A stretch of 64,000 bases of DNA from positions 2,833-66,832 of the forward strand of contig JACOSC010000258.1 in assembly GCA_016179055.1 (NCBI GenBank). Reading direction: 5' to 3'. Below the pieces are notes generated by a model. The model did no database searches. It was not told where the DNA came from and saw only the letters and a list, made by a program, of their open reading frames with translations. Source of the DNA: Acidobacteriota bacterium (GTDB taxonomy: Bacteria; Acidobacteriota; UBA6911; JACOSC01). This document shows positions 19,374 to 46,522 of this stretch, piece by piece. Made by a program: the position numbers and the translations under genes. Position 1 is the first letter of the stretch; every line of letters starts with the position of its first letter.

Positions 19374-19389
19374 TTCACCATTCTCACTT

Positions 19390-19593: not shown

Positions 19594-19754
19594 TTATCTA
19601 TCCAGTCCACGTGGCGGTTCGCATGGAGCCGCTTCAGTTCGTCTCTTCTCCCGGCTTATAAGTGCCGCCATCTCGGATCCGCCTTTATTCGCCTAACGCG
19701 GGATCGGGCCGTTTACCGTCAATGACCAACCAGTTTCGCCGTATGGCACATAGA

Positions 19755-19780
19755 CCCGGTCGCTACCACTCCCGGTTCTG
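19755..19780. repeat. REP family R1, right arm only (CCCGGTCGCTACCACTCCCGGTTCTG)
   Basis: It matches the right arms at 765-790 and 57531-57556, including the preceding ATGGCACATAGA. The left arm is degenerate. It sits at the upstream border of the R-M island. Confidence 0.6.
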
Positions 19781-19809
19781 TATCCGTGCAGACCCCCGGA
19801 ACAGTTGCC

Positions 19810-24139: not shown

Positions 24140-24437
24140 CTCCTTAGAAACTTCGTAACCATTCACGGGTGGTGGATACCCCCGGCGGAAGCCGGGGGAG
24201 CTTCAAGATCCAGCCTACATCACGCGCCCCTCACCCCCTTGGCCCCCTCTCCCCGCCCGGCGGGGAGAGGGGGGTTGGGGGAGTGGGGCGTCGCCGGAGT
24301 AGGCTGGGCCTGAGTCTCCCCCAGCTTCCGCTGGGGGTCTCTTGTGTGCTCTCAGTGAACCCCGCGAACCGTTACGAAACTTCCCTAGTTTCATCTTGGT
24401 ATCTGCTTGCCGTCTTCGCAAGCTGGGGGACTCTTTT
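24140..24437. repeat. ~295-bp hairpin-rich repeat, family R4, copy 1
   Basis: Near-identical by eye to 30998-31290 in the same orientation. It contains hairpins CCCCCGGC-GGAA-GCCGGGGG, CTCTCCCCGCC..GGCGGGGAGAG and CCCCCAGC-TTCC-GCTGGGGG. ORFs 24169-24510 and 24215-24451 are artefacts of it. Confidence 0.8.
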
Positions 24438-24489
24438 GGAGCTACGGACACAAGTGATACACAAGACCATCCGAAATATCCAAACTCCA

Positions 24490-24523
24490 GAGCAATTAGC
24501 TTTTAGCTAATTGCTCTTTTTTT
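24490..24523 (+). terminator. Canonical intrinsic-terminator hairpin (12-bp perfect stem, 3-nt loop, T7 tail) overlapping the CHAT gene stop codon
   Basis: GAGCAATTAGCT-TTT-AGCTAATTGCTC followed by TTTTTTT on the plus strand. On the minus strand the same hairpin follows the CHAT1 stop region with a weaker U-rich tail, so it may act bidirectionally. Confidence 0.6.
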
Positions 24524-27500
24524 GCTTTCTTATGCAGGAACAAGAAGCCGGAAAGCGCCGCAAGAAAAATGGAGGCCAGCATGGCCCAGTACAGTTTATC
24601 GATCCGAAAATGAGAATCGTCCAGTGAAATAGGGTCTGCATTGCCAATTAAAATAAAGGGCGCCCAGAAGAATGGATCATCATACTTTCCACGAGCGATG
24701 AGCTCGAGCTTCGCTTTTCGCAAAGCCTCTCGCTTCGGTGCGCCCTCCGCCATATGCTTATAAAACCGTGTCATCAAGTCGACCGTCGCAGGGCTATCAG
24801 CAATCGGCCAGAGCGTAGCGACGACCGAATCGACACCGGCTGACAAGAACGCCCGGCTCATCGTATCGAGGGCCTCTCCGCGCCGGAGGTGACCCGAGGC
24901 CGTGTCGCAGGCCGATAGGATCACCAAATCCGCGTGCAAATCAAGCGACAGGGTCTCGTAAAGGTACAAGTATCCGTCCTCGCCCTTTTGGTCCGCGGTT
25001 GGGTTCAAGGTAAAGGCGATACGCGAGTATAACGGATTCTGGTCATCGAGGATATTGTGTGTGGCCAAGTGGATCACTTTCGACTTGCTCGCCAACTGTT
25101 TGAACGTATGCTCGGTAGCTTCGCCTTTCAAGAAGAGGAGGCCTCCCGGAACGAGCCGGCGGATATTTCGGACCTCAGCTTCGCTGTACGGCAGCGAAGC
25201 GAGATGCTCAACCCGCGATGCACCCACGGCGTCTTGACTCCTTGTTCCGGCCAGAGTGAAATCCGGGTTCCCCATAGCCAGGAGCGGGATCTGCCGCGTG
25301 GATTCTGAATGGCCACGCTTTGGACCAAGGAGGCTCGCCGCGTAGGAATAAGATATGGGATAGCGCTTGAGGAGGTAGCATGGCTTGTAATTGTCAAAGC
25401 CGGTGACCAACATCTCGAAGGGAACATAGCTCAAGAGCCCATCCGGCACGATGATGAGGCGTGTTCCGGCGGCGACAAATTTTTCCAACGGCTGAAAGAC
25501 CGCTTTATATAACGTCTGGAGCTCATTAAGATGAAACCCTGCGCCCACGGGATCTTTTACGCGTTGGCGGTTATTGGTGAAGAGCGTGCTCGTCTCCTCG
25601 ACTAGCGTCTTCAATTGTTTTTCAGCTACGGGGATCTCTTCGATTCTGAAAAACTTCTTGCCCACTATAAACGCGATAATCTTGCGGTCAGTGACCAAGT
25701 ATTCCAACAATGTCTCGGTCTCATTGAGCTGGCTTTGGATTTGGGAAGGATTTAAAATGGCAGGGTCGTAGAAGAAAGAAAATCCCGGGTGTTGTTTTTT
25801 CATTTCCGCCAGGAGCGCGGCCTTCCGGTTATCCAGGCGCCGGACATCAAGTTCCAAATCCGCGATCTGTCGGTTGGTCTTCTCGGCAAGAGTCAGGTCA
25901 TACCGTGCCACTTGAGATTTGCGTTCCGTATTCATTGCGATGAGCTGTTGGTGTATGGCATGTAAGGCATCCTGTGTTTCGTCCATACGTCTTTTTAACG
26001 AATCGTCCAAGTGCACCTTATCCGTGAGATGTCCCCGGCGCATCAGATCAAGAATATTGGAGGCCTTGGCTTTTTCGGCGTAATAAAAAGCCAGCTCCGC
26101 GTAATCCTCGCGGTGCGTCTTCCGATGAAGCGTAAGCAGCAGCTCCACCAGGGTGTGGTAAGCCTTCATGTTCGTTTCGGAGAATCCCGTCCGTTCTTTC
26201 GGCGTGAGCCGCTTACGCACGGCTTCGATCAGCTCGACGGCGTTTCGGTAGTATTGATAAGCGAGTTCGTCGTCGCCCTTCTGTTGACTTAGATCGCCGA
26301 GGCCTTCATAGGCTTCCCATTGGAGATCCTCATAGCCGAGTGAACGACCCATCGTAAGAGCCGCCTGGTAAGATTGTTCTGCCTGGGTAAATTTCTGCAA
26401 ACGTAAGGAAGCATCTCCGATCCCCTTGAGGCACAATCCTTCAAACTGCGGACGCTTACGGGCCCGCGCTAATCGGAGGGCGATATCAAAGGTGTCGAGC
26501 GCCTTTTTGTAGAGTCCCATTTTCATGTAGGTCTTGGCGATGTTCCAGTAAACAACATTTAAGTTTAGACTCGCCTCATCCTTTTGGGACAGTGCGAGCG
26601 CTTGGTTATAAAATTCGAGCGCCGCCTGGTAATCCTCTTTGAAGAGGAAAGCATCTCCGAGAGAGCCCAAAATGGCTTCTCTTGCACGAGAGGGCGAACG
26701 AACGAGTCGCAAGGCTTGCTTATACAAATCGATCGCTTTATCATATTCGCCGATTAGAGCCGCCATTTCGCCGAGGCCTCGATACGTATTGGAGGCGCCG
26801 ACATCGTCGTGGATCTCCTTAAAAAGATCGAGTGCCTTCAGGAATTGATCGGCGGCTTTCGAGTAGTCGTTTAGTTTTTGCCAAGCGAGTTCACCGGCTT
26901 TAAGCGCCGTCCAAGCTTGTCGCTCCTTGTCGTTGGCGGCAAGGCTCAGGCGTTCGGCGCTTTGAAAGTACTTCGCTGCCTCCGCAGTTTTATCCAGGCG
27001 ACTGGAGAAGACGGCCTTGAGATAAAAGGCAAACCCTTGCAGTTGCGGGTCGCCCAGTGCTTCTGATAAATGCAGCGATCTTTCAAGATACTGAAACGCG
27101 GAGCGAAAATCTCCCAAGAGGCCATGACCACGACCCACATAGGTGTAGGCCTCCGCCATGAGTTCATGATTCCCGGTTTTCTCGGCCAAATCTTCAGCCT
27201 GTTTTGACGTCGAAAGATAGTCACGTAATTTATGAAGATCCCAAAGAATAGCGGCCTTCAATAAGTGCGCCAAGGGATCCTTGGGATTTATCTTGATCGT
27301 CTTGTCGGCATATTCGAGCGCCTGTTGGAAGTCCAAATTCAGCCGATAGGCCGTGGCAAGGCCAAAATAGATAGGGTACGGATGCGGAGATGATTTCTCG
27401 AGACGATGCAGCCGTTTGAGGGCAGGATTTAAATCCCCTTTGGCTCGGAAGACATGCGCCAGAAAAACGTATGGCTTTTGAGAACGCGGGTAGCTCTGGA

Positions 27501-27870
27501 GTGCTCTAAACAGATACTGGGCCGCCTCGTCGTAGTCCTTTTTATGATGGTGACAAAGGGCAAGACCATAAAGCAGGCCGGGATGATTGGGCCGGCGGGA
27601 AAGCTCTGCTTTAAGGAATGTGATGCTGTCTTCGAGAATTCCCTTTTTGCCGCTTGCTCGGGCCAGCAGTTCGTAGACCTCAATGAACTGAGGTTCCTTA
27701 ACGACCGTCTCTCGAGCAACCCGTATGACCTTGTCGTAATCCTCTGAGTTTAGCGTTTGAAGGGTTTGTAATTCCAGCCGATCCGACCGATGCGATGTTG
27801 GGGGCGTTGCGCGAACGAAGCTTGATTCCATCCCTAAGAGGAGTATGATGAAGAGGCTTGCTAATCGCAT
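24496..27870 (-). CDS. Exported TPR-repeat CHAT-domain (caspase-like) protease with C-terminal membrane anchor
   Basis: ORF 24496-27906. The preferred ATG at 27870 gives the signal peptide MRLASLFIILLLGMESSFVRA. About 700 aa of TPR repeats follow. CHAT His context is VIHLATHNILDD and Cys context is DLVILSACDTASG. C-terminal TM segment LYWAMLASIFLAALSGFLFL, then KKAKKE. Confidence 0.8.
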   Translation of the reverse strand: MRLASLFIILLLGMESSFVRATPPTSHRSDRLELQTLQTLNSEDYDKVIRVARETVVKEPQFIEVYELLARASGKKGILEDSITFLKAELSRRPNHPGLLYGLALCHHHKKDYDEAAQYLFRALQSYPRSQKPYVFLAHVFRAKGDLNPALKRLHRLEKSSPHPYPIYFGLATAYRLNLDFQQALEYADKTIKINPKDPLAHLLKAAILWDLHKLRDYLSTSKQAEDLAEKTGNHELMAEAYTYVGRGHGLLGDFRSAFQYLERSLHLSEALGDPQLQGFAFYLKAVFSSRLDKTAEAAKYFQSAERLSLAANDKERQAWTALKAGELAWQKLNDYSKAADQFLKALDLFKEIHDDVGASNTYRGLGEMAALIGEYDKAIDLYKQALRLVRSPSRAREAILGSLGDAFLFKEDYQAALEFYNQALALSQKDEASLNLNVVYWNIAKTYMKMGLYKKALDTFDIALRLARARKRPQFEGLCLKGIGDASLRLQKFTQAEQSYQAALTMGRSLGYEDLQWEAYEGLGDLSQQKGDDELAYQYYRNAVELIEAVRKRLTPKERTGFSETNMKAYHTLVELLLTLHRKTHREDYAELAFYYAEKAKASNILDLMRRGHLTDKVHLDDSLKRRMDETQDALHAIHQQLIAMNTERKSQVARYDLTLAEKTNRQIADLELDVRRLDNRKAALLAEMKKQHPGFSFFYDPAILNPSQIQSQLNETETLLEYLVTDRKIIAFIVGKKFFRIEEIPVAEKQLKTLVEETSTLFTNNRQRVKDPVGAGFHLNELQTLYKAVFQPLEKFVAAGTRLIIVPDGLLSYVPFEMLVTGFDNYKPCYLLKRYPISYSYAASLLGPKRGHSESTRQIPLLAMGNPDFTLAGTRSQDAVGASRVEHLASLPYSEAEVRNIRRLVPGGLLFLKGEATEHTFKQLASKSKVIHLATHNILDDQNPLYSRIAFTLNPTADQKGEDGYLYLYETLSLDLHADLVILSACDTASGHLRRGEALDTMSRAFLSAGVDSVVATLWPIADSPATVDLMTRFYKHMAEGAPKREALRKAKLELIARGKYDDPFFWAPFILIGNADPISLDDSHFRIDKLYWAMLASIFLAALSGFLFLHKKAKKEQLAKS

Positions 27871-27987: not shown

Positions 27988-29403
27988 CTAGATGTTTCCC
28001 TCCATAGCGCCAGGATCGTGTATCGTAAAAATTTCGTATGAGCGGGTTTGGCTATTCCAATTCAACACCACTCCCGTCGTGTCGAAGCTTCTCGTAAGAC
28101 TCGAGCAGGGATTTGGGTTTGGATTTACTACGCCCCCATCAACGATGGCGAAGTCAACGGGGTCGAAATTAGCCGGAGCTTCGACCAGTGTACTACCGGG
28201 TTGGGCATTCGTACCGACAACGGTCTCGTAGGCTGTTTCAAACGGGCATCTAGCGTGCAACGGTGTCATGGATGCGGGCGGAAGCGTGCGAACGATCCGT
28301 CCTCTATGGATAAAGTAAATAAGTCCGTTCCCATCAGAACTGATGCCGGTAGGATGTGAGTCTGAGCCGTCTGGAAGATAGAAATGCGACCGCTGCGGCG
28401 CCGGAAGCCTCACCGGGTCAATAAGAACTTCATGAATACCTCCTCTCCCGGCCGTGTAGAGAGCCCATTGCTCGCCATAGGACCACCGCGGATAGAAGAC
28501 ACCGTGAATTGACGCCGCCGGAGGCAAATTTGTTGCGACAATGTTGGCCGAGCCCTCTTGGATATTCTTGATCACAGAATCGCCAAGGCTACCCTCGTCG
28601 AGGACGAAAGTCTCTCCTCCCACGGAGGCAACACTAAGCGGCCGGCGAAGTAGGCTATTCCGGCATTCTCCCCCGACGAGAGTCTCTACCGGGTAGCCAT
28701 TCGTAGCTGAAACAACAGGCGCGCTTGCGGGACCCACATACGCGACTTTGACCGCGCAATTTCCTGTATCGGCAATGATCAGAGTGTTATTGTTCGGGTT
28801 GAAAGCCAGCCCGGCAGGCCGATTTAATTGGGCGGTCTCTCCTAGAGCACGCGTCTGCGTCACGCTGAGCAGGGAAATGCTCGCTACGTGATAGGGCTGA
28901 TAGTTCATTTCGAGTCGAACCTGGGCCTTGATCTCATCAACGGCGTTGGCGAATGGTAGTGTGACAAAGACTCTGAGCGAGAGGCACACAATTTGGTCCG
29001 CTTCGGTTGCAGCCGCAGGAGGCGAGATTTGGCCCCTCGCGACGGTCCTCACCGAACCTGCGCACTGAGTACATCGGCCCAGACAATCTGCCTCTTTTCC
29101 TTCGCAGTAATTTCGACAGGCGGACGAGTAATCAAGCTGATCAAGTTCCAAATCACTTGAATCACCGCCTCCTCTATCGTTGGCGCCGAACGATGCGGCG
29201 ACATCCTCGGCGGTAAGCCTGATGAGTTCGAGACTCCGATCTACAGCTATCCCTCCCACATCCTGAGATTGAAACGACGCAATCGGGATCACAACCAGAT
29301 GTCCCCTGTCCCCTGGCAAACGGGTCAGAGTGCCTTCCGCGAATACAGTGACAGCGGCAGCCCACAGCGCAGCCAAAGCAATGGCTAAGCCGATCTTTGT
29401 CAT
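27988..29403 (-). CDS. Secreted protein with N-terminal Cx3C-x6-Cx3C module and a probable beta-propeller body
   Basis: 471 aa. Signal peptide MTKIGLAIALAALWAAAVTVFAEG. Cys cluster CRNYCEGKEADCLGRCTQC at nt 29062-29118. The remainder is beta-rich. No family assigned. Confidence 0.55.
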   Translation of the reverse strand: MTKIGLAIALAALWAAAVTVFAEGTLTRLPGDRGHLVVIPIASFQSQDVGGIAVDRSLELIRLTAEDVAASFGANDRGGGDSSDLELDQLDYSSACRNYCEGKEADCLGRCTQCAGSVRTVARGQISPPAAATEADQIVCLSLRVFVTLPFANAVDEIKAQVRLEMNYQPYHVASISLLSVTQTRALGETAQLNRPAGLAFNPNNNTLIIADTGNCAVKVAYVGPASAPVVSATNGYPVETLVGGECRNSLLRRPLSVASVGGETFVLDEGSLGDSVIKNIQEGSANIVATNLPPAASIHGVFYPRWSYGEQWALYTAGRGGIHEVLIDPVRLPAPQRSHFYLPDGSDSHPTGISSDGNGLIYFIHRGRIVRTLPPASMTPLHARCPFETAYETVVGTNAQPGSTLVEAPANFDPVDFAIVDGGVVNPNPNPCSSLTRSFDTTGVVLNWNSQTRSYEIFTIHDPGAMEGNI

Positions 29404-29497: not shown

Positions 29498-30196
29498 TTA
29501 TGGGCTGATGCCTGTCTCCAGGGTCCTTAAGAGCGACTGCGCGTCGGCGGCGAGCCGTCCTCCGGTCTTCACGATCTCGCTAAGTTGTTCGCGGGCCTGA
29601 TCTGGTTGATGAAGTTCTAAATACGATTTGGCCAAAAACCATCGGGCTTGCTCTTTCTCACGGTCCTCGGCCGAAGCAATCGCGCGCAGGAATGGCGTCA
29701 CAGCCTTACTGTGTTGGTTGACGCTGTAGTAGCAATACCCCAAGAGCAGGTAGCTCGAAGAGGAGGGTTTCGTTTGAACGTGGGTTTCCAAGGCGCCGAT
29801 GGCTTCCGCGTACCGGCCCTTTTCAACAAGCCGCGTGACTCTCTGCGGCGGAAGCTCGACGGCTCGAATTACCGGCGCCGGCTCGCTTTTTGGTATATGA
29901 TGTTCGTAATAGACAAAGAGACTTCCGACAACCAATAGCACGGAGGCCAAGCCGGACGCCCATTTGAGAAAGTGGAAGCCCGCAGGACCGACGTGGCCCG
30001 GATTGAGTCGAAGCCCCCGGGCCTCGTTAAGAATAGGATACAGTTCGCTAGAGTCCCCCAACTCCTGCACGCAATAGACACAGTGTCTGAGGTGGTCCTC
30101 GAAGATATCCTTCTCCTGCACTTCGATCGCATGAAACTGATACGGTGCAAGCAGGAGCCCAATATCAGGGCTTGTGCATTTTAAACGTCTAAACAT
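29498..30196 (-). CDS. Anti-sigma factor: zinc-binding ZAS N-domain, one TM helix, periplasmic TPR domain
   Basis: 232 aa. H-x3-C-x2-C motif HLRHCVYC. TM segment ASGLASVLLVVGSLFVYY. The C-terminal part is TPR-like (YLLLGYCYYSVNQHSKAV.., WFLAKSYLELHQPDQA). It starts 12 nt after the sigma gene. Confidence 0.75.
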   Translation of the reverse strand: MFRRLKCTSPDIGLLLAPYQFHAIEVQEKDIFEDHLRHCVYCVQELGDSSELYPILNEARGLRLNPGHVGPAGFHFLKWASGLASVLLVVGSLFVYYEHHIPKSEPAPVIRAVELPPQRVTRLVEKGRYAEAIGALETHVQTKPSSSSYLLLGYCYYSVNQHSKAVTPFLRAIASAEDREKEQARWFLAKSYLELHQPDQAREQLSEIVKTGGRLAADAQSLLRTLETGISP

Positions 30197-30208: not shown

Positions 30209-30760
30209 TTACTCTTGAAATTTTAGCCGGCGGGTCGTTAACTTCTGCGCCAAAAGGTTGCGAAGGCGGCTAAGTTTTTTCCGGACGCACAGGACGCTTA
30301 GCCCAAGCTCCCGGGCAATCTGGGGACTCTCATAGCCATCGATGGTCAATTCATAAAGTCGTTGCTCGGTGGGGCCTAAGCCGGCGAGGACCTTGAGGAT
30401 GAGCTCGCGGCGCTCTTGCTTAAGTATGTTCTCTTCTGCGTTATTGAATGCACTGGGGCTCGAACCGGCTGAACGGAACAGAGCAAAGGCCTTATCCAGC
30501 AGATTTTTCTTTCGCTGTTTGGTTCGGAAAAACATGGACATTTCCCGTTTCATCACCGCAAAAACCCAAGGCATTAGCTCGTTCAAATCTGTCTCTTCGA
30601 TCCGTCGACTATCTTTCGAAAGATCCTTAATGGCTTCCTGAGCGATATCTCTCGCGTCTTCGGGCTTTATTTGTTTGGACCGCGCGTAATTGACGAGGAT
30701 ATCGGTCAGGTGAGCCAGCTTTGCATCGAGCGTTGTTTCCTTGGTGACTAGCAAACTCAT
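30209..30760 (-). CDS. ECF-type RNA polymerase sigma factor (sigma-70 regions 2 and 4)
   Basis: 183 aa. Region-4 HTH ESPQIARELGLSVLCVRKKLSRLRNLL and a divergent region 2. It is the first gene of the four-gene operon. Confidence 0.7.
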   Translation of the reverse strand: MSLLVTKETTLDAKLAHLTDILVNYARSKQIKPEDARDIAQEAIKDLSKDSRRIEETDLNELMPWVFAVMKREMSMFFRTKQRKKNLLDKAFALFRSAGSSPSAFNNAEENILKQERRELILKVLAGLGPTEQRLYELTIDGYESPQIARELGLSVLCVRKKLSRLRNLLAQKLTTRRLKFQE

Positions 30761-30830
30761 GGACTTGTAATCCCCCTCTTATCCAGCAGACGGCGCTCCA
30801 GCCGTATATTCCGTAAACGCGTTCCGCATA

Positions 30831-30868
30831 GAAAGCTGCCGGATGCATCGCATCTGTGACCAAAAAAA
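30831..30868 (-). promoter_or_regulatory. Bipartite promoter-like motif, site D (gene strand: TTTTTTTG-GTCAC-N13-CCGGCAGCTTTC), upstream of the ECF sigma operon
   Basis: Plus strand gaaAGCTGCCGG-atgcatcgcatct-GTGAC-caaaaaaa. The proximal edge is 70 nt from ATG 30760. It has the same two boxes and the same 13-nt spacing as the sites at 33073, 35200 and 36992. Confidence 0.6.
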
Positions 30869-30997
30869 GTAACTACTCAGTCGGCGCTCCTTAGCCCCGT
30901 AGGGGCGGCATGTTTATAGCAGAAGCCATTGAATAGGAGTCAAGCTCCATAGGAGCGACACGTACAGAGCCTTTATTAGCTAAGCCTGCACATGTCG

Positions 30998-31290
30998 CTC
31001 CTTAGAAACTTCGTATCCGTTCACGGGTGGTGGATACCCCCGGCGGAAGCCGGGGGAGCTTCAAGATCCAGCCTACATCACGAGCCCCTCACCCACCTGG
31101 CCCCCTCTCCCCGCCCGGCGGGGAGAGGGGGGTTGGGGGAGTGGGGTGTCGCCGGAGTAGGCTGGGCCTGAGTCTCCCCCAGCTTCCGCTGGGGGTCTCT
31201 TGTGTGCTCTCAGTGAGCCCAGCGAACAATTATGAAACTTTCTTAGTTTCATCTTTGTATCTGCTTGCCGTCTTCGCAAGCTGGGGGACT
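30998..31290. repeat. ~295-bp repeat family R4, copy 2 (direct orientation relative to copy 1)
   Basis: It aligns end to end with 24140-24437. It is nested between inverted modules CCCCGTAGGGGCGGCATGTTTATAGCA (about 30896-30925) and its complement (about 31322-31349). ORFs 31027-31356 and 31073-31279 are artefacts. Confidence 0.8.
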
Positions 31291-31490
31291 CCTCCTACGG
31301 AGCTTGACCGTTTTGGAATCCCAGTTACTATAAACATGCCGCCCCTACGGGGCTGAGAGGCATGCCTGAATAGTTACAAAATAAAAATAATAAGCATTCG
31401 TTTCCATCTCCTCCTTCATATCGGCAGATTGACCTGGCGGCTATACCAAAAAGCATGCTGGTGTACGGGAACTTGCACTAAAGAAATTCT

Positions 31491-31665
31491 GTATCTTCTC
31501 AATAAATCGAGGTAGGGGCCCATACCACAATTCAAGAAGCGCGCGCGACCGTCAGCCAATCCTATCCCTGAAAGGGATACATAAAATAGCCGGGGGTGGA
31601 GCGGAGCGAAACCCCCGGGTCAAATAGGCCCCGAGTCCGTTCGACCCTGAAGAGGTCGCACCACT
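31491..31665. mobile_element. Truncated copy (left half) of the 400-bp MITE
   Basis: It starts GTATCTTCTCAATAAATCGAGG and follows the 50764 copy up to ..CGACCCTGAAGAGGTCGCACCA. No right terminus is present. Confidence 0.6.
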
Positions 31666-31887
31666 GTGACAAATAATTTCAAATATTTTTTTGTTAGATT
31701 TAAAGCGTCAACATGTCAGGGCGCAGCGCAAGCGCGGAGATTTGAGTTGGGTTTTCGATTTCGCCGGTCCGAGTTCACAGACTGGCGCCAGCTTGGACGG
31801 GACCGGTCGCGAGCATGTTAGCGGGGCCGCCCCGGAGGGGGACAGAGCGGCCTCGTACAGCAAGGTTGAGCAATCATTGCACGGCGA

Positions 31888-32970
31888 CTACAAAGAGTGA
31901 AGGGGCTGCCACCCTGTGCCGCCAAAGGACGGATCGAACTGCCATAGGATCGGAGCATTATCGACTGCGAACACCGTAGCTTCACCGTTACGGTTCTGCA
32001 CGGCAGCAACTCCTCCCCACACGTTCGTGAGCGGCGACAACAAGGCCCAACCATTGCCCGCGAAGAGGTCGCCGAACTCGCGATCCCATTCCCACACCCG
32101 TGCAGACCCATCGTCGGCAAATACAACAGGATTGCCGTTGTAGTTGCGAGTCGCACTAAGCGCTACAAAGTTTCCTTCCGACGACAACAAGCTCCAGCCA
32201 CCGGCGTCGGAATTGAAGTGCCAGAGCGAGAGAATGGCGTCCAGCACAAACACAACCGGCTTTCCCGTTGCGTTCTGCGTCGCAGCTATCTCACCCGTGC
32301 AATTGCATTGATTGGACAGCGACCTCCAGTTGTTGCCGCCCAGCGCGCGATTGAACTCGAACAGTTCTCCGCTTCCATCAACGACGAATACAGATGCCTG
32401 GCCGAATTCGTTTCGTGTCGCGCCTATGCCGCGATAATTCGCTGCGGTGGTCATTTGTGTCCAGCCGTCCGAAAACCGGGCAGCGGTTTGAAACCACGAC
32501 CACAGTTCACTACTGCGCGTTACCGCAAAAACCGCGGGCTGTCCGTCATCGGTTTGCGTTGCGCTGATCTGCCCTGAAATGTCCGGCACTCGCGCAGTGC
32601 GAAGCCCCAGCCAGCCGTTTCCTCCGTTGCTGGGATTGTGCTCGAAGATGTTGAACTGGGAATCGACGACAAAGACTACCGGCTGCCCGAGTGAGTTTTG
32701 GGTCGCGGTGATCCCCACAAATGTTCGAGCCGGATTCGAATCAGCCATGTGGAGCCATCCGATCGCAGAGTTAGGGTTGTGTTGCCACAATTCGTCGAAT
32801 GTCTGCCCGTGACGGATCACGTAGGCGACCGGCTGACCGAACTCGTTCCTCGTCGAAGCGACTCGTTCGCTGGAAACCACGCGACTCTGGGCGTTTGCCC
32901 AAGTGGGAGTCAGCAGAACCACGAGGGCAGCCATAAGGATCGAAATTGAAATTCTGAAGTTTATTTTCAT
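31888..32970 (-). CDS. Secreted seven-repeat beta-propeller protein (tectonin / PLL-lectin-like repeats)
   Basis: ATG 32970 with AAGGAG upstream. Signal peptide MKINFRISISILMAALVVLLTPTWANAQ. About seven ~48-aa repeats of the form ATQN..GQPVVFV.D....LWHF......GW..L. Confidence 0.6.
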   Translation of the reverse strand: MKINFRISISILMAALVVLLTPTWANAQSRVVSSERVASTRNEFGQPVAYVIRHGQTFDELWQHNPNSAIGWLHMADSNPARTFVGITATQNSLGQPVVFVVDSQFNIFEHNPSNGGNGWLGLRTARVPDISGQISATQTDDGQPAVFAVTRSSELWSWFQTAARFSDGWTQMTTAANYRGIGATRNEFGQASVFVVDGSGELFEFNRALGGNNWRSLSNQCNCTGEIAATQNATGKPVVFVLDAILSLWHFNSDAGGWSLLSSEGNFVALSATRNYNGNPVVFADDGSARVWEWDREFGDLFAGNGWALLSPLTNVWGGVAAVQNRNGEATVFAVDNAPILWQFDPSFGGTGWQPLHSL

Positions 32971-33072
32971 GATGTTTCTCCTTTTTCTTGTACGCTCTTG
33001 CAGCCTCAGCCGAAGAGAGCCAAGCAACAAAATTCTGAATCACTCAGCAAGCGCTGTTTGCTCTGACACCCA

Positions 33073-33112
33073 TATAGCTGCCGGATGCGCGGGATGAGTG
33101 ACCAAGAAATAA
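33073..33112 (-). promoter_or_regulatory. Bipartite promoter-like motif, site A (gene strand: TTTCTTG-GTCAC-N13-CCGGCAGCTATA)
   Basis: Plus strand tatAGCTGCCGG-atgcgcgggatga-GTGAC-caagaaataaac. It lies about 100 nt upstream of ATG 32970. Confidence 0.6.
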
Positions 33113-33937
33113 ACAAGTAAGCTTTTTCGTCGGACAGACCCCTGTATAACATATCTCCGGAATCTTGTTTTCTTAACAAGATTTTCTCTGCGTTTCCGTG
33201 CCTCTGTGATTAGTTTTTTCACCACAGAGTTGTTCATGCCCCTTTGGGGCACCACGAAGGATGAAAATCTCGTAAGGGAGTCTGATCGCGGGTGCTGTTA
33301 CGGCGCCACGATTTGTTCCCATAGAGGACGTAGGGAAGATTCGACCCTAAGGCCGGCACCCCGTGCGTCCGGCGACCGCGTTTACGTTCGTTGACAGATC
33401 GGGAGTCGATCGGGTGTGCCCTTGGGCACGCGGTCGGGTAAGGTGTGTCTTGTAGTCTTATTTTATTTTCAGGGGAGGGAAGAGGCACGATAAGGCGCCC
33501 CAGCGGGGTGCAAAGAGATTAGCCTGGGGCAACCGAAGTGCCGCCCCAGGACTACCGTCCCAAGAAGACACGCGCCCTGGAAGGGCGCGGGATTTGGTGT
33601 GCGGCAACTTCTCCGGCGCCCTTCCCGGGCGCGCCATCCCAGAGCCGGGCTAGCCCTGGGGCTGCGCTGACGCTTGCCCCAGGCTAATCTCCCTTGGCCC
33701 CTCCGGGGCCCGACGGGCGAATCGCACGCGGGTATTCTCGGGCGCGCACCCAGCAAGCGCAGCCGCCGTCGTCTTCCCGTCCATTTAGACGCCGGACCCA
33801 CTCCGGGTTTCTTTGCCACAACGCGTGGAGTACCCAGCTATTTCCTCAGCAATCAACCCGTAATCGAGCACTCTCGACCCCATACTGATAGGTCACGTAC
33901 TGTCCGCTGCAGCAGAAACTATGCTGCTGAGGAACGA

Positions 33938-35122
33938 TTAGCACCCTCGCATACATTCGGCACGGTCTTCACTGCAATTCTGCAAGCATAAGGTTCTTGC
34001 TCGACCTGTAAGTTCCCGACAATCTGCCACGCAGGTCTCCCGCTGCTGCGTACAACTGTGTACACAGTCCGGATCGACGGGCGGTGGTGGCGGCGGTGAT
34101 GCTAGAGAGCCACAATCGCTCACACAGAAAGGGTCTGTCATCGTGACACTTGGCACATCACTGAGCGCCTGGATCGACCGTCCATACCGGGGGTCGACGG
34201 TCGGGAATAGTGTCCGACCATCCCAGTTTTCTTCGGCAACGAGGGGCACGTCGATCACGATGCGCTCCAGGCCAAGGAAATAAGCGGTATACGGATTTGA
34301 CGTCAAGTGACCCGCCACGAATTGCCCCCATGCAGAGGGCCATGCCTGCGTGAGATCCAACGGGGCGCTGAATACATGTCCAGGATTTTCCATCGTCCCG
34401 TCGCCGAGATAATGGGTCACGCGCACCGATTCGTGTCCGACCCGATTTCCCGTATCACCATCGGTTGCTCGATGATCGCGGACAAATGTCATGGAATAGA
34501 TATTCCGAGCTTGGCTGATATACTGACCGCCATTGGTGTAACTGCCAAAGCCATAGTCCATACCCCATCTCGAATTGTCGTAACCGTCTGGTGTCGTCAA
34601 ATTCGAATCCGGCAAAGCGAACCACACATAGTACGTCGCCGAACCTTGTTGCATTTCGGCGTACACGAGGATGTGCCCACAGAACCCAGGCGTGCGGCCT
34701 GCCGTGATTCCGGTTGGGCTCACCATGGGCACCCATGAAAACGGCGAGCCGATGTGGTTTCCTGTTCGGGCTTGAGCGACGCCTGATCCGAGAGTACCCG
34801 GAACGCCAGTGCTACCGTCGGGCGAAATCGCGTTAAGGTCGAGTCCGAAGGGAAACGGCATATCCATATCCATGCCGGCTCCTTGATAAGAGTCGATTCG
34901 GCAGTTTGCGTTCGAGTCGTAGATTGCAATCGCCGCCGTCGCCGCAAATTGAGCAGGAAACCAGGTGCGGGTGGGACTCATTTGGCTGGCGGTCAACTGG
35001 GTCCAGGGGCTTTGAGCGAGACCGTCAGGACTGACGCAAGCGAAGAGTGCGATGAGGCCTAGAACACCGAACCGTAAGTACAATCGCCTCAGTCGCGTGC
35101 CTTTAATTGATAATTCGTTCAT
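33938..35122 (-). CDS. Secreted protein with C-terminal poly-Pro linker and four Cx3C motifs
   Basis: ATG 35122 with AGGAG upstream. Signal peptide ..LRFGVLGLIALFACVSPDGLAQS. The C-terminus is PPPPPPVDPDCVHSCTQQRETCVADCRELTGRARTLCLQNCSEDRAECMRGC (nt 33941-34096). Confidence 0.55.
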   Translation of the reverse strand: MNELSIKGTRLRRLYLRFGVLGLIALFACVSPDGLAQSPWTQLTASQMSPTRTWFPAQFAATAAIAIYDSNANCRIDSYQGAGMDMDMPFPFGLDLNAISPDGSTGVPGTLGSGVAQARTGNHIGSPFSWVPMVSPTGITAGRTPGFCGHILVYAEMQQGSATYYVWFALPDSNLTTPDGYDNSRWGMDYGFGSYTNGGQYISQARNIYSMTFVRDHRATDGDTGNRVGHESVRVTHYLGDGTMENPGHVFSAPLDLTQAWPSAWGQFVAGHLTSNPYTAYFLGLERIVIDVPLVAEENWDGRTLFPTVDPRYGRSIQALSDVPSVTMTDPFCVSDCGSLASPPPPPPVDPDCVHSCTQQRETCVADCRELTGRARTLCLQNCSEDRAECMRGC

Positions 35123-35199
35123 ATCTAATCTCCTTTCCAAAGTCATAAGACTTGTCGTTTCATCGTATGGCTCCATCTTTCATTGCCCACGGTCACTAG

Positions 35200-35239
35200 G
35201 ATAGCTGCCGGGAGGCCCCGATGTGTGACAATAAAATTT
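35200..35239 (-). promoter_or_regulatory. Bipartite promoter-like motif, site C (gene strand: TTTTATT-GTCAC-N13-CCGGCAGCTATC)
   Basis: Plus strand gatAGCTGCCGG-gaggccccgatgt-GTGAC-aataaaattt. It lies 78 nt upstream of ATG 35122. Confidence 0.6.
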
Positions 35240-35457
35240 CTGCCATTATTGAAAGCGTGGCACTCTAGTATCCCTTGGCTCATTCCCCCCGTCTGGTCTA
35301 TTCATAGCCTCTTCCCATACAGACCTCCCTTAAGACCTACTGAATTCCGACTTCGACGATACACGCGGCGCCCCGCCTGCTCGCCTGAGGCGAAGTTCAT
35401 CTATTCCACGCCGTCTACGACTGTGCCGACACGCATCGCGGCTTGCGCCGGGACGAC

Positions 35458-36819
35458 TCACCGCAGTAGGATCGGCGCCTCGAATTTGAAGTCGATCATG
35501 GTGCCGTAGAACCCGCCACTTGGGCTGACGAACATCACGTCTCCGGTCGCGCGGCCTCTGGCACGTAGCTGTTCTAGCGCTGCAACGTCGAACGTACCGG
35601 TGAATCCTTCACGTTGCATGACGACGCCTCGGGACTCGCGATATGGACCGATAAAGTCTGCACTGTCACCCGCCGCGAGATGTACGGCGTCTACGCGCGT
35701 CGACTGTTCGTCGGGCTTCCATAGAGCGAAGCTGGCGGCCACGAACTGCGGCGTATTGAGTCCACAATCAAACCTCGCAACGACGATCAAGTTGCTGGTG
35801 GTTCCCGTAGCGCGATTCGTCGGGTAGCGGCTGCCGTCGCGCACGGCATAGCCCGATGGTAACAACAATCCGATCTCGACGTAGTTGGGGAAAAACCCTA
35901 TCACTTGTTCGCCAGTGTCGATCGCGCCGTCGGCTTTCCCATCCTGGTTTTGATCGAAGTACGCGATGACACTGGTTGGGTTGCCCCCGCACAGAGGATT
36001 GGTGAAGTTGGGCAGATCGGTCACGGTCACCGTCGCCGTCCCGCCAGTCAACGTGGTCGCGTAGATTCGTTCCCCGCCAAGGCTGGGCGACTCGCCATCC
36101 TCACTGTACGCGTTGATCACGAACATGTAGCGAGTGTTGGGAAGCAGGTTGCGAAATCGGAATGACTGCGTATTCTCAGGCACACGGACGTCAGGGAGCC
36201 AGGTACTCGGGCCTTCAAGAATGTGGATGATGAAACCATACTCGTTGTCCGAGTTATCTTGCCAACTCACGTCGATCTCTCGGTCGGACAGCACGACAGC
36301 TCGCCGGTTCGACGGGCTAATCGGCGGGTTGTACACGGCAAACGGACGAGGAAACACCAACAAGGTCCGCAACACGCCGATGAATATTCCTTCTGCGGGC
36401 CCGGGGCAATTCTGGAACAGCGTAAGAGACACCACGCCGGACGTTGCAGTGTCCGGCACGATGGCACGGAGCTCCCGATCACTCACTCGCGTGAACTCGC
36501 GCCTCTCGAACGTCGTTCCGCTCGAAAAGCTGATCCTCGCTTCGGGGGGCAAGCGGTTAAAGCCGCTGCCGACGATGTTCATCTCAGTGCCCGGACTTCC
36601 AGACCATGGCGAATAGCCTGTCACGAAAACCCCGTTCGGAACCGATGGGGTACAGGCATTGGCGTCGAGAGGTTGCCCGTCTCCAGAGCTTTGAGATCGG
36701 ACGTATCCTATATTCAGGGCTAGCATGGCCACAAAAGTTGCTACCGTGAGTGTCAATTGCAGATAGCTCTTCCCATGAGCTACTGTACTTGAGGTTCGCT
36801 TTCCATAATCGATTATCAT
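35458..36819 (-). CDS. Secreted protein with IPT/TIG-like and fibronectin type III-like domains
   Basis: 453 aa. Hydrophobic leader LQLTLTVATFVAMLALNIGYV. IPT-like VTGYSPWSGSPGTEMNIVGSGF. FN3-like VVLSDREIDVSWQDNSDNEYGFIIH..LLPNTRYMFVINAYSEDGESP. The leader ACAAGAAAAGGAGAAACATC is nearly identical to that of the gene at 32970. Confidence 0.6.
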   Translation of the reverse strand: MIIDYGKRTSSTVAHGKSYLQLTLTVATFVAMLALNIGYVRSQSSGDGQPLDANACTPSVPNGVFVTGYSPWSGSPGTEMNIVGSGFNRLPPEARISFSSGTTFERREFTRVSDRELRAIVPDTATSGVVSLTLFQNCPGPAEGIFIGVLRTLLVFPRPFAVYNPPISPSNRRAVVLSDREIDVSWQDNSDNEYGFIIHILEGPSTWLPDVRVPENTQSFRFRNLLPNTRYMFVINAYSEDGESPSLGGERIYATTLTGGTATVTVTDLPNFTNPLCGGNPTSVIAYFDQNQDGKADGAIDTGEQVIGFFPNYVEIGLLLPSGYAVRDGSRYPTNRATGTTSNLIVVARFDCGLNTPQFVAASFALWKPDEQSTRVDAVHLAAGDSADFIGPYRESRGVVMQREGFTGTFDVAALEQLRARGRATGDVMFVSPSGGFYGTMIDFKFEAPILLR

Positions 36820-36991
36820 AGATGTTTCTCCTTTTCTTGTTTATTCTTCGGCATAGACCGAGAAGAACGACCACTTCGAATCTTGCCTTCATCTCCTTGG
36901 GTTTATGTTCTTCCTAGCTAACGCCGGAGAAGACCAGAAAAAGGGAAAGGACTTGAGACCCTCTTCTTACCCTACCTTCTCTGGGCACCAA

Positions 36992-37031
36992 GATAGCTGC
37001 CGGCACCGCCGTGTGTGTGACAAGAATAATT
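36992..37031 (-). promoter_or_regulatory. Bipartite promoter-like motif, site B (gene strand: TATTCTT-GTCAC-N13-CCGGCAGCTATC)
   Basis: Plus strand gatAGCTGCCGG-caccgccgtgtgt-GTGAC-aagaataatt. It lies about 173 nt upstream of ATG 36819. Confidence 0.55.
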
Positions 37032-37075: not shown

Positions 37076-37104
37076 TTGACAACTGCAAACTTGTGCAGTA
37101 TGGT
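37076..37104 (+). promoter_or_regulatory. lexA promoter (TTGACA-17 nt-TATGGT) with an embedded palindromic SOS-box candidate ACTGCAAACTTGTGCAGT
   Basis: -35 at 37076-37081, -10 at 37099-37104. The palindrome at 37082-37099 (CTG-N10-CAG) fills the spacer. RBS AAGGAGGG at 37121-37128; ATG at 37134. Confidence 0.6.
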
Positions 37105-37133: not shown

Positions 37134-37760
37134 ATGAGTAGACCAACACTCACCGATCGGCAGCGCGGCATACTGGATTTCATTTATAGAATGGTAAAGC
37201 AGTTGGGATATCCTCCCACCATGCGCCAAATTGGGAAGGAGTTCGGGATTCGCTCGACCAACGGCGTGCGTGCGCACTTACGCGCGTTGCAAAAGAAAGA
37301 ATACATCAAGCGTAACGCTTATACCTCGCGAGGAATCGAATTATTGGGCGCGGGATTGCGGAACGCCTTAAATACGGAAGTCTTGGAGATTCCAGTAATC
37401 AGTCGCGTGGCGGCGGGTACTCCGCTCTTGGCGGTGGAGAATATTGACGATACCTTAGTGCTGAACCGAGACCTGATCAAAGGGGAAGGGCTCTTCGCGC
37501 TGCGCATTCAGGGCGACAGCATGATCGAAGCCGGAATATTGGACGGTGATTATGTATTGGTTTGCCCGCAAGCTACCGCCGACAATGGAACCATCGTGGT
37601 CGCGTTGTTAGGAGAAGAAGCCACGGTCAAAACCTTTTTCTGCGAGCCCGACGGCCGCATACGCCTACAACCGGCCAACGCCCGACTTGAGCCGATTCTA
37701 ACCAATAATGTTCAGATCGTCGGCCAAGTGGTAGGTTTATTGCGGACCGCCTTTCATTAG
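37134..37760 (+). CDS. lexA: LexA repressor (S24 peptidase)
   Basis: 208 aa. LTDRQRGILDFI..GYPPTMRQIG..GIRSTNGVRAHLRALQKKEYI (winged HTH), VAAG cleavage region, GDSMIEAGI (Ser) and VKTF (Lys). Confidence 0.9.
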   Translation: MSRPTLTDRQRGILDFIYRMVKQLGYPPTMRQIGKEFGIRSTNGVRAHLRALQKKEYIKRNAYTSRGIELLGAGLRNALNTEVLEIPVISRVAAGTPLLAVENIDDTLVLNRDLIKGEGLFALRIQGDSMIEAGILDGDYVLVCPQATADNGTIVVALLGEEATVKTFFCEPDGRIRLQPANARLEPILTNNVQIVGQVVGLLRTAFH

Positions 37761-37926: not shown

Positions 37927-38220
37927 CTAATCCCATGAAGTTCCAAGAATCACCCCACAGGCCCTCATCATGAGATTTATTTCGAGGGAGCCCGCATCAT
38001 ATTCCATCCATAGAATGGCCGGCCATTCGACGGCACGGCTTTCATACTGGACCGTGTGACCCATCTGCCAAGCCTGGTTAAAACGGCCGCTCACATTACG
38101 GGCCCCGCTGCGTGAGCGACGAGCCGGCGGCGAGGATCGAATGTGAGACACCGTCGTCCGTGCCTCTTCCGAAAGCTGGAGTTGTTGGCGCCACGCTAAG
38201 AATTGCTCATCGTTTAGCAT
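37927..38220 (-). pseudogene. Possible N-terminal fragment of a TnsA-endonuclease-like / Tn7-family transposition protein
   Basis: 97-aa ORF. ..HIRSSPPARRSRSGARNVSGRFNQAWQMGHTVQYESRAVEWPAILWMEYD resembles the start of TnsA-N-domain proteins, then ends abruptly. Recognition is from memory only. Confidence 0.3.
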
Positions 38221-41128
38221 AAGACGTCACCTCTACGAAGGCCCGACCGTTATAACAGCCGATCATCAGAAAGGTGGCACGCGGCCTGCCTTTTATGCAC
38301 CGATAGGACCGTTTAAATTATGTAACCCCTCTCAATCCCCTTTACCGATCAGAACAAACCCGGCCCAATAAAACGGGTGGCTATAAGGGCTGGACTTAAT
38401 CATGCGCAGTTTGGCTTGGCGCAGCGCGTCGGCCTTATCGGCGCCGTTTGGGGAGCGCAGTCTTCTAAAGAACGCGGGCATGAGTACGGACGTGGATTGG
38501 TCGGATACCGCCCATAAGCTGGCCACGACCGACGGCGTGCCGGCGTACATAAACGCGCGGGTCAGCCCGATCAGTCCCTCGCCGCGGACCTGCTTTCCCA
38601 GCGCGGTCTGACAAGCGGACAGTATGACGAGATCGGCCTTTAACTTCAGATTGAATATTTCGTGGACTTGCAAAAAGCCATCTTCCGGAGAGTTATTATC
38701 CAGCGTCAGGACAATGGAGGAGAACTGCGGCTTTTCCTCATTCAACAACCCGTGGGCGGAGAAGAGGATGTATTTGTATGCTTCCAAGTTTATGCCGGTC
38801 TTGACATTCTCCTCGCTGGCCTTATGCCGTAAGAATAGCCGCGCCTCGCCGGGCGGAAAGACTTTGGCGATGGACTGGGCTTCCCACTGGCTATGGGCCA
38901 GCCGGGCCAATCCTCCGCGCACGACGCCGCGCAGTAGACTTTTTTCCACATTGCCGGATCGCCGTTTTCCTTCGTAATATACAGGATCTGCGAACGCCAG
39001 AAACGCCTTCTGTTTGACGGGTGCCACTTCAAGGGGCTTAGTCAGCGTAGCTAAAACTGTGGCCGATGGAACATACTGGATCGCCAACTTACGGATCAAG
39101 TAGGGCAAAGCCGCGAAGTCGGCGCCGGCTTTGACCGGTTGGGTTAGCAAGGCTTCAAACGGCAAGTACACCAGTGGTCCATCGGGGACAATAATGAGGT
39201 GCTTCTTACCCGCGAGCCGCTTCGCCGCCGGTCCTACCAGCGTTCGATAAAGGTGATGGGCCAGGCCGGCATATTGACCGGCGTAGCCATGCAGCTCTTG
39301 CTCGGCGGGATCGGTTTTCATGATGAGGTTGCGCAGAGCCTTCACCTGCGCGGTTAACTTATCAGCGCCCGGCAGTCGATACAACTGGTAATCATTCTGC
39401 GCGACGGCAAAAAGATAAGAGGCTTTCTCCCCGACGACATACTCCAGCAATGCGGATTCTGCATCCAGTAGTTTCTGCGCTTGTTCCAAGGTGATGGGCT
39501 GAGGATAGAGTAAATCGGCGTACTTCGGATTTCTCCGGCGGGTCTCCTGTTGCAGCTTTTCATATTCGTCGTCAAACTCGCGCTGCGCGGTGTGTAATTC
39601 TTCCAGTGTCGCCGCCCTGGAATCACTTGGACCGGCTGGACCAAGGAGCGTGGCACTCAGCCGCCTCTGCTTGTCCGACAGCGTGGCCGTGAGTCGCTGT
39701 TTCCTTTGTAGCAAGTCGGGATCGATTCCTTGCGAGACCTGGGCTTTGGATTCAGCCAACAGCTCAAGAAAGGCGCGCGCCTTGGCCCGCTCAGCATACT
39801 CGAACGCTTCCCGATCAAATCCGTGGGCGGGTTCCCTCATATGCGCTTTGGCTAGCAGTTCAATAGCTCCTTCATACACTTCGAGTTTGCTTTCTAAAAA
39901 ACTAGACTTTTGCTCAGGCAATTGGATCTGACTGCGAAGGTTTTCGATCGTCTCGATCGCGAGCCGATAGTGCCCGAACGCCGCGTCGCGTTCTCCTTTC
40001 TGTTCGAGCGCGCGCCCCAGTCCGTAATGGGCTTGCCAAACAATTTCTAGCATGCCGGTTTGTTCCCCGGTGGCTAACGCGGAACCAAAGCCTGCGATGG
40101 CCTCTTCAAGCCGGCCCGTTCTTAGGTACAGATCGCCTAAACTATTCCACCCATAGCCTTGAACGTATTTATGCCCCTGCTCTCCCAAAAGCTTCATTCC
40201 GTCTCGAATGTATTCCAGTGCTTTCTGGTATTGGCCTGACCGTTTGTAGACCTCTCCGATGCGAGCTAAGGTTTCCCCTTTAAAGAGCATGTTCTTTATC
40301 TCTTCCGCTATAGTCAACGACTGTTCCAGTGCTTCCAATGCTTTTGCATATTCACCTATCTGAATGTATAAGTCCCCGATATTGGAAAGATTTCTTTCCT
40401 CTTCGAGCCTATCCGGAAACTCTCTCGCGCTTATCAATGACTTCTCGTAATACTCCAGGGCTTTAGCATAATCGCCCAAATCCTGATAAATGATCGCTGT
40501 ATTTCCCAGGCTGGCACCCGCTCGCCGTTTGTCTTCAATACCTGAAAGCCCCAGGAATATTCCAACCTCCTCATGATTAGCTGCCAGCGCCTTGGAGTAG
40601 TTGCCTATTTCCCGATAGATGTTTGAGAGGCCTCTTAAGGCTAGCCCACAATTAGGTTTGTCTCCTATCTCACAAGCAGCTTTTTGTGCTTCTTTCATGT
40701 ACTCTAAAGCTTTCTCGTAATTTCCTAATTTGGCATGAAGCCCTCCGATATGACCCATTAAGCGATAGACCCACTCGTAGCCCAGGTGACGTCCCAACTT
40801 TAATCTCCAGCTTGAAGAATTCTATAGCGTTCTGGTAATCATACAAATCCTTGTAGCGCGCTGAGATGACATCAAGAATTACCAATGTTACTTCCTGGTC
40901 GTTAACGTTTTTGGCTTTTGAAAGAGCAGTAAGATACGCTTGCAAGGAATGTTCTGAGAGTTTTCGAGAGCTCATCCTCCCATACAGATTTCCTAAACCG
41001 TAGTAGGGACCCGGATATTCTGGGTTAACTCGAATAATATCGTTTAGATATTCGCTTAGGTCGGCCAGGTATATTCTCTCTTCAAGATAGCTAGCGACTA
41101 AAGGCTCATAGCACATTAGAAGACTAGG

Positions 41129-45771: not shown

Positions 45772-45849
45772 ACAGAACCGGGAGCGGTAGCGACCGGGTC
45801 GGCACGTCCGCAGGGCGCGCACCCGGTCGCTACCGCTCCCGGTTCTGTT
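45772..45849. repeat. REP family R1 hairpin, 5' flank of RAYT-1
   Basis: ACAGAACCGGGAGCGGTAGCGACCGGGT-loop-ACCCGGTCGCTACCGCTCCCGGTTCTGT, with 28-bp perfect arms. Confidence 0.85.
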
Positions 45850-46447: not shown

Positions 46448-46522
46448 CAGAACCGGGAGCGGTAGCGACCGGGTCGACCGCCAGCCCGCACGCACCCGGT
46501 CGCTACCGCTCCCGGTTCTGTT
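46447..46522. repeat. REP family R1 hairpin, 3' flank of RAYT-1 (overlaps its stop codon)
   Basis: Same 28-bp arms as 45772-45849 with a different loop. Confidence 0.85.

Follow-up and report, generated by a model that had tools for sequence, protein, structure and literature searches.

Extracytoplasmic function (ECF) sigma factors often autoregulate and are often encoded beside their targets (PMC7826278, PMC7776599). In Myxococcus xanthus, four DdvS-dependent promoters have been mapped around the gene for DdvS itself, one of them autoregulatory, and anti-sigmas resembling DdvA have been reported only in Myxococcota and one Comamonas species (PMC6061681, PMC11506125). Three motifs for the type III-E CASP-sigma lie within the locus that encodes it (PMC10028731), and the ECF41 promoter has a validated −35 box, TGTCACA, with a spacer of 16 ± 1 nucleotides (nt) (PMC3426412). 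Here we describe a 64,000-nt stretch of DNA from an Acidobacteriota bacterium (assembly GCA_016179055.1, contig JACOSC010000258.1, forward-strand positions 2,833 to 66,832), hereafter the window, in which four copies of a bipartite motif lie upstream of the operon of an ECF-type sigma (window positions 30209–30760) and of three neighboring genes for exported proteins. We judge that the four sites are probably promoters for this sigma, serving its own operon and three local targets.

The closest characterized analogue is the DdvS/DdvA system of M. xanthus. In both loci an ECF sigma is accompanied by a single-pass transmembrane anti-sigma with an N-terminal zinc-binding domain (DdvS and DdvA are co-transcribed), the system includes a periplasmic caspase-like module of tetratricopeptide repeats (TPR) and a CHAT domain, four clustered promoters (candidates in the present case) comprise one ahead of the sigma operon and others for neighboring units, and A/T-rich DNA adjoins the promoters. 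In DdvA, however, a TPR-CHAT portion of ~900 residues is fused to the anti-sigma, whereas the anti-sigma described here carries only ~110 residues of TPR, and TPR-CHAT forms an exported protein in its own right, bearing a signal peptide and encoded two genes downstream of the anti-sigma. The promoter cores also differ (AAc/cGT for DdvS, CAC/GCAGCT here), as do the targets, which are CBASS and CRISPR-Cas defense genes for DdvS and genes for exported proteins here; known defense-system models gave no PADLOC system match. None of the chains found by sequence searches of the PDB was described as DdvS, DdvA, or a TPR-CHAT protease. Because the TPR-CHAT protein is separate, the targets are not defense genes, and no PDB match was found, we take the locus to work like DdvS/DdvA but not to be a member of that system.

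A bipartite motif with four exact copies

The pattern KGTCAC-N13-CCGGCAGCT has exactly four matches without mismatch in the 64-kb window, all on the minus strand (30834–30861, 33076–33103, 35203–35230, and 36995–37022), and no further match appears there when up to two mismatches are allowed. The four sites and their parts are as follows.

30831–30868, minus strand: site D, candidate autoregulatory promoter of the sigma operon, identified by pattern match, matrix, and sequence; GGTCAC at 30856–30861 with a T-tract ahead, CCG plus GCAGCT at 30834–30842, putative start G at 30827.
33073–33112, minus strand: site A, candidate promoter of a gene for a beta-propeller-like exported protein (ATG at 32970); GGTCAC at 33098–33103, CCGGCAGCT at 33076–33084, putative start G at 33069.
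35200–35239, minus strand: site C, candidate promoter of a gene for a Cx3C-rich exported protein (ATG at 35122); TGTCAC(A) at 35225–35230, CCGGCAGCT at 35203–35211, putative start G at 35196.
36992–37031, minus strand: site B, candidate promoter of a gene for a TIG/fn3 exported protein (ATG at 36819); TGTCAC(A) at 37017–37022, CCGGCAGCT at 36995–37003, putative start G at 36988.

In 100 shuffled windows the average number of matches at up to two mismatches was 0.25, and no shuffle had as many as four; when three mismatches were allowed, the extra matches in the real window were at chance level only. A weight matrix of the sites, as proposed in a first-pass annotation made from the sequence alone, was scanned over both strands of the window in leave-one-out form (built from three sites at a time) and gave the fourth site 33–35 bits, compared with at most 7.7 bits for the best non-site. 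To allow for the motif having been picked by eye, we also counted two-block patterns of 5 + 9 nt with any gap of 8–21 nt in simulated first-order Markov windows, and four copies of such a pattern occurred in 0 of 40. The occurrence of the motif is thus real and far beyond chance. The exact matches and the matrix scores bear out the coordinates and common architecture that the annotation had given for the four sites, and both scans agree with it that the rest of the window, including the region upstream of a second CHAT gene, lacks the motif.

All four sites are intergenic, lie on the strand of the downstream gene, and follow a T-rich tract. The distance from motif box to start codon is 73 nt for site D, 105 nt for site A, 80 nt for site C, and 175 nt for site B. 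Measured from the site ends used in the annotation, the distances are 70, 102, 77, and 172 nt, and these agree with the figures given there. In register, pairwise identity is 0.89–1.00 in the boxes, 0.45 in the 13-nt spacer, and 0.22–0.25 in the flanks, the last being the level expected at random. The spacer length of 13 nt stands as first described, but the spacer is not fully "non-conserved," given its excess identity over the flanks and a third base that is A in all four sites. Two further positions, 7 and 9 nt past CCGGCAGCT, are invariant G (4/4).

Repeats, paralogy, and RNA structure

Conservation confined to the boxes bears directly on whether the sites might be remnants or ends of a mobile or dispersed repeat with no regulatory role. 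Such an origin deserves attention, as the window is rich in dispersed repeats and a repeat terminus abuts site D at 30869. A 294-nt direct repeat (24140–24433 and 30998–31291, 95% identical) brackets the sigma operon including site D, and its upstream copy sits within an element of ~500 nt with 87-nt inverted arms (30869–30955 and 31292–31377); paired palindromic elements are also present at 23.7–24.0 kb and 33.5–33.7 kb. The true repeat families, however, are conserved contiguously, whereas the sites are conserved in their boxes alone. The repeat next to site D has two further copies (2216–2267 and 31292–31377), which lack the motif and carry unrelated sequence in its place; sites C and B lie in intergenic regions without any repeat match, and all four sites are similarly placed and oriented relative to the downstream gene start. 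We therefore regard a repeat origin as very unlikely. With flanks at random identity and with blastn of the intergenic regions never linking the four sites, the first-pass description of a protein-recognized site in place of a copied repeat is upheld. Gene duplication offers no better account, since the four genes downstream of the sites have no detectable similarity to one another, which indicates that the motif was not spread in that way.

The sites lie 73–175 nt upstream of start codons and could thus be contained within transcribed leaders, and in site C the GTCAC is followed by a complementary GTGAC. Both features would suit an RNA-level element, either a structure or a protein-binding site in the 5′ leader, with transcription starting further upstream. 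The consensus fold of the four aligned regions, though, has an energy of −0.03 kcal/mol with three predicted pairs and no compensatory change, and the GTCAC/GTGAC complementarity is found at one site only. In addition, no sigma-70-like promoter is predicted upstream of the sites on the minus strand, and there is no Rfam match at the sites. An RNA element accordingly has very little chance of being the correct explanation.

Spacing and sequence of the candidate promoters

If CCG is counted as part of the spacer, the motif becomes KGTCAC-N16-GCAGCT with an invariant G located 7 nt past GCAGCT. We infer that GCAGCT is the −10 hexamer within the 9-nt box, and the invariant G would be a plausible transcription start; with the start placed there, GCAGCT spans −12 to −7 and KGTCAC spans −34 to −29. 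The 25 nt upstream of the −35 box are 60–76% A+T, compared with a window mean of 45%. UP-like A/T tracts adjoin the −35 box in about a quarter of predicted ECF promoters. Spacers of ECF promoters are reported to be 16–18 nt (PMC7776599) or 14–17 nt (PMC6061681), and the boxes at the four sites are nearly identical, as would be expected if, as reported, ECF sigmas require promoters close to consensus (PMC7776599). The geometry as a whole (16-nt spacing, −35 box, A/T tract, and near-identical boxes) matches published descriptions of ECF promoters (PMC3426412, PMC7776599).

The nearest described promoter sequence is that of ECF41 (TGTCACA-n16-CGTC; PMC3426412). Its −35 box, TGTCACA, is present in sites C and B, and sites D and A have GGTCACA/T; the ~16-nt spacing, the location of the motif upstream of the sigma gene or a neighbor, and leaders of tens to ~200 nt are likewise shared. 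The −10 elements differ, being CGTC or TGTT in ECF41 and GCAGCT after CCG here. ECF41 sigmas also carry a fused C-terminal SnoaL-like domain, have no anti-sigma, and have essentially one target gene, whereas the sigma described here has 183 residues ending right after sigma-4, has a separate anti-sigma, and would serve four units. No ECF41-like (COE-type) neighbor gene is present at the sigma locus.

Several observations weigh against, or lend no comparative support to, the assignment of the sites to the local ECF sigma. The −10 region, CCGGCAGCT, lacks the CGT core that most ECF promoters have, and the 9–12 conserved bases there make a longer element than is usual. The four downstream genes all lie on one strand, so the argument from orientation is weaker than it looks. 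A scan of 185,579 species genomes for the exact motif gave 97 stretches, and metagenome contigs gave at least 120; among the matches listed, each stretch has a single match and the taxa are unrelated. By a rough estimate these matches are about what chance predicts; the source genome itself does not appear among them, and tblastn of eight locus proteins against 217 motif-matching loci found no relative. Finally, the one relative of the sigma found in protein searches (see below) is encoded on a contig of 799 nt (JASDBE010426601.1, assembly GCA_030157145.1) with just 43 nt ahead of its start codon, too little to include the expected motif position. The −35 box has CAC in place of an AAC core, as does the ECF41 variant TGTCACA. 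AAC at −35 and CGT at −10 are common but not universal among ECF groups.

We also aligned the sigma with E. coli RpoE and used published specificity pairs (PMC7776599), although this alignment is weak. The position of Arg171, which pairs with −31, is kept as Arg, and base −31 is C as it is in GGAAC. Ser172, which pairs with −34, is replaced by Lys, and base −34 is T here and G in GGAAC; Asn84, which pairs with −13/−12, is replaced by Met. These changes may be compatible with the altered −34 base and the unusual −10 box, but because the alignment is weak, we give them little weight.

Two other classes of bacterial promoter were considered. GGCA in the downstream box resembles the GGCAC of a sigma-54 −24 element, and the box GGCAGC could on that basis be taken for such an element. 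The sigma-54 consensus is TGGCAC-N5-TTGC. The GG-N10-GC register starting from GGCAGC is found in none of the four sites, however, and a lone GG-N10-GC lies within the spacer of site C. This assignment would also leave the conserved GTCAC located 13 nt upstream unexplained, and the sequence thus contradicts it to the point that we give it next to no credence. A sigma-70 promoter was likewise rejected, as a sigma-70 consensus scan did not flag the sites.

The sigma operon and its relatives

Gene starts were taken from the gene calls of a matching GenBank contig from an uncultured Acidobacteria metagenome-assembled genome (GCA_016201345.1), which is identical to the window save one mismatch and a 76-nt indel in a repeat region. 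The operon behind site D comprises four genes.

30209–30760, minus strand: ECF-type sigma, 183 residues; TIGR02937 at 60.2 bits (cutoff 42.9) over residues 20–174.
29498–30196, minus strand: predicted anti-sigma, 232 residues, starting 12 nt past the sigma stop; zinc motif, membrane helix, TPR.
27988–29403, minus strand: exported Cys-rich NHL-repeat protein, 471 residues, third gene of the operon; 10 Cys including CxxxC pairs.
24496–27870, minus strand: exported TPR-CHAT protease, 1124 residues, fourth gene of the operon (ATG at 27870); CHAT domain with E = 2.5e-63.

The first gene encodes an ECF-type sigma of a very divergent lineage. The TIGR02937 match passes its cutoff, as expected from the first-pass assignment; Pfam matches are slightly under threshold for both Sigma70_r2 (22.1, cutoff 24) and Sigma70_r4_2 (25.4, cutoff 25.7), and the models of specific ECF subfamilies all score well below their cutoffs. 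A search of 1.8 billion representative proteins gave one relative of the sigma at 69% identity (P0002), all others being at 31% or less. The next best (P0005, 31%) is encoded in an unrelated locus of small genes, one of which has a phage-protein domain.

The second gene product has, to judge from its sequence features, the layout of a zinc-finger transmembrane anti-sigma. Its N-terminal HxxxCxxC motif (DHLRHCVYC), single membrane helix, and C-terminal TPR (Pfam, residues 120–223) match the anti-sigma that the annotation had named in the sigma operon, and it has a weak match to NF052375 (21.5 bits, cutoff 100) over residues 15–51. The TPR-CHAT protein carries a signal peptide and a C-terminal membrane helix; its TPR repeats are numerous, and its CHAT domain contains the active-site motifs IHLATHN (His) and LSACDT (Cys). 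At 24489–24517 the stop codon of its gene is overlapped by a hairpin formed from a perfect 13-bp palindrome, AGAGCAATTAGCT...AGCTAATTGCTCT, which is likely a bidirectional terminator that closes the operon.

A TPR-CHAT protease encoded with an ECF-like sigma and an inhibitor is also a feature of type III-E Craspase (Csx29, Csx30, and CASP-sigma), as are several sigma motifs within its own locus and positive autoregulation, the latter being proposed here. The sigma matches the type III-E model NF041236 weakly (32.1 bits, cutoff 100), and no Cas-like protein was found among the window open reading frames (ORFs) scanned. The TPR-CHAT protein described here differs in being exported and not cytoplasmic, and the inhibitor is a transmembrane zinc-finger anti-sigma and not Csx30.

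The operon can also be compared with RpoE-RseA of E. coli and SigW-RsiW of B. subtilis, with which it shares a sigma/anti-sigma operon behind a self-read promoter (a candidate here), a strict bipartite promoter, and a regulon of envelope or exported proteins. RpoE recognizes GGAAC/TCAAA boxes and SigW recognizes TGAAAC/CGTA boxes. The boxes described here are different, the sigma belongs to a nearly unique lineage with one known relative, and a CHAT protease is encoded in the operon instead of the usual unlinked site-1 protease of the DegS/PrsW type.

Candidate target genes and the factor that may read the sites

The three genes behind sites A, C, and B, and one hairpin among them, are as follows.

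31888–32970, minus strand: target gene A, exported beta-propeller-like repeat protein, 360 residues, with signal peptide MKINFRISISILMAALVVLLTPTWANA.
33938–35122, minus strand: target gene C, exported protein with a C-terminal CxxxC cluster, 394 residues.
35458–36819, minus strand: target gene B, membrane-anchored or exported protein with TIG/IPT and fibronectin-III domains and an N-terminal hydrophobic segment, 453 residues.
33571–33589, minus strand: terminator-like hairpin, located past the end of gene C and ahead of site A, predicted by a consensus scan only.

This hairpin is in keeping with transcription of the genes as separate units. A near-identical translation-initiation region, CAAGAAAA(A)GGAGAAACATC, also lies just before the ATG of both target gene A and target gene B (32971–32989 and 36821–36839, minus strand); it occurs nowhere else in the window and is a second element that two of the four units have in common. 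Homologues of targets A and C are 30–46% identical and, with one exception, are not in an ECF/CHAT context; no motif is present in the readable loci of these homologues. The exception (P0153) is a target A homologue of 42% identity with a PF26607 Beta-prop_PLL match, encoded on an 8571-nt contig from a soil metagenome (JGI 3300047160). Its gene is divergent beside the gene for a different, PF07638 ECF sigma, with a 1287-residue protein also encoded adjacently, which hints that the family of target A tends to be ECF-controlled.

The principal competitor to reading by the local sigma is that the sites are real regulatory sites recognized by a protein encoded outside the window, either another alternative sigma or a transcription factor with a two-box operator. 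In favor of such a protein, nothing here links the sites physically with the local sigma, the −10 box departs from the usual ECF form, and both boxes contain a loose GNCA core (GTCAC and GGCAG, 20 nt apart) that could mark tandem half-sites. Against such a factor, site D lies directly ahead of the sigma gene and all four sites are clustered no more than 6.2 kb from it, an arrangement typical of ECF sigmas, and the scanned ORFs of the window included no second sigma gene. The sites are promoter-like in their spacing, in the A/T tract ahead of them, and in their distance from start codons. The motif also has neither dyad symmetry nor a clear direct repeat, and the lack of dyad symmetry makes a dimeric operator unlikely, including one for the nearby lexA gene. 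On balance we hold recognition by an outside factor to be unlikely, although it is the strongest of the alternatives.

The lexA gene (37134–37760, plus strand; TIGR00498, 195 bits) is divergent from site B and has a separate sigma-70-like promoter at 37076–37104 (plus strand), ~45 nt from the site B T-tract. LexA boxes are symmetric or direct repeats, unlike the motif. With the motif asymmetric and the lexA promoter 45 nt away, a LexA operator was ruled out.

Recognition by the local ECF sigma remains the favored explanation. The promoter and regulon proposal of the first-pass annotation is supported, in that no computational test able to overturn it did so, whether for repeats, paralogy, RNA folding, sigma-54, or sigma-70.

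Other features of the window

The region around the repeat that abuts site D is an assembly-unstable repeat cluster and is possibly mobile: 76 nt at 30978–31053 are absent from the otherwise identical GenBank contig, and three independent Logan contigs all break at 30898, within the repeat arm. A 173-nt element has three intergenic copies that are 89% identical (31491–31663, 50764–50930, and 60208–60379), the first of which occupies part of the 1.1 kb without genes that separates target gene A from site D. An inverted pair of full-length Acido-Lenti-1 RNA motifs (52.8 bits each), 95 nt apart, is present at 1979–2024 (minus strand) and 2120–2165 (plus strand) and is followed at 2216–2267 by another copy of the repeat terminus found beside site D.

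A 26-nt element resembling repetitive extragenic palindromic (REP) sequences, CCGGTCGCTACCGCTCCCGGTTCTGT, has eight copies, three times as close inverted pairs, at the following positions.

716–791: REP-like element.
19756–19781: REP-like element.
45772–45848: REP-like element.
46447–46521: REP-like element.
57481–57506: REP-like element.

Near REP-like copies, a gene at 47211–47753 (plus strand) encodes an IS200-like Y1 transposase domain, and its product could be a REP-associated tyrosine transposase. The eight copies of the 26-mer had raised the suspicion of a CRISPR array, which was ruled out because the copies are dispersed and mostly in inverted pairs, not tandem; a scan of the window with Tandem Repeats Finder likewise gave no tandem array.

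A second TPR-CHAT protein, encoded at 38332–40797 (minus strand), is 30% identical to the first and has intact FSAHG/LSACQT motifs and no signal peptide. Its gene has no motif upstream and is flanked by a 97-residue ORF (37927–38220, minus strand) and a DDE transposase gene (41364–42974, minus strand). Two further genes are unconnected to the motif finding: 43575–44402 (minus strand), encoding a protein with a Peptidase_S74 domain (endosialidase chaperone, tail-fiber-like), and 19017–19610 (minus strand), encoding a 23S rRNA intervening-sequence protein.

Discussion

A self-activating ECF sigma with neighboring targets is a standard and expected design. The novelty lies in the promoter sequence, in the near-orphan lineage of the sigma, and in the presence of an exported TPR-CHAT protease as a stand-alone protein within an ECF operon.

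We propose the following mechanism for the locus. At rest, the product of the next gene, the zinc-finger anti-sigma, would keep the sigma at the membrane, as is known for the family. A presumed envelope signal would inactivate the anti-sigma, and the freed sigma would fire site D. At each site, the A/T-rich tract may act as a UP-like element ahead of a −35 box, T(G/T)GTCAC, at about −36 to −29; between it and the −10 element GCAGCT (−12 to −7) would be 16 nt of spacer, ending in CCG at every site, and transcription would begin at the invariant G located 7 nt downstream of GCAGCT. Firing of site D would yield more sigma, anti-sigma, Cys-rich NHL protein, and exported TPR-CHAT protease, and so constitute positive feedback, and the freed sigma would also fire sites A, C, and B to produce three unrelated exported proteins.

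A more speculative extension, which we think improbable but worth stating, assigns a role to the protease itself. In a split version of the DdvA design, the TPR-CHAT protein could be a signal-activated site-1 protease that cuts the periplasmic TPR of the separate anti-sigma and so frees the near-orphan sigma, with the resulting cascade amplified from site D and the three exported proteins produced from sites A, C, and B. If this were true, caspase-like proteolytic activation of a sigma factor would exist outside CRISPR or defense islands and outside Myxococcota.

If recognition by the local sigma is correct, the motif joins seven genes over 12.5 kb into one testable regulatory unit and provides a promoter specificity, KGTCAC-N16-GCAGCT, for an ECF lineage with essentially no relatives; the sigma and its promoter could serve as an orthogonal pair. 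The locus would also offer a second, independent setting for linking periplasmic TPR-CHAT proteases to sigma/anti-sigma signaling, for which DdvA is the only characterized case.

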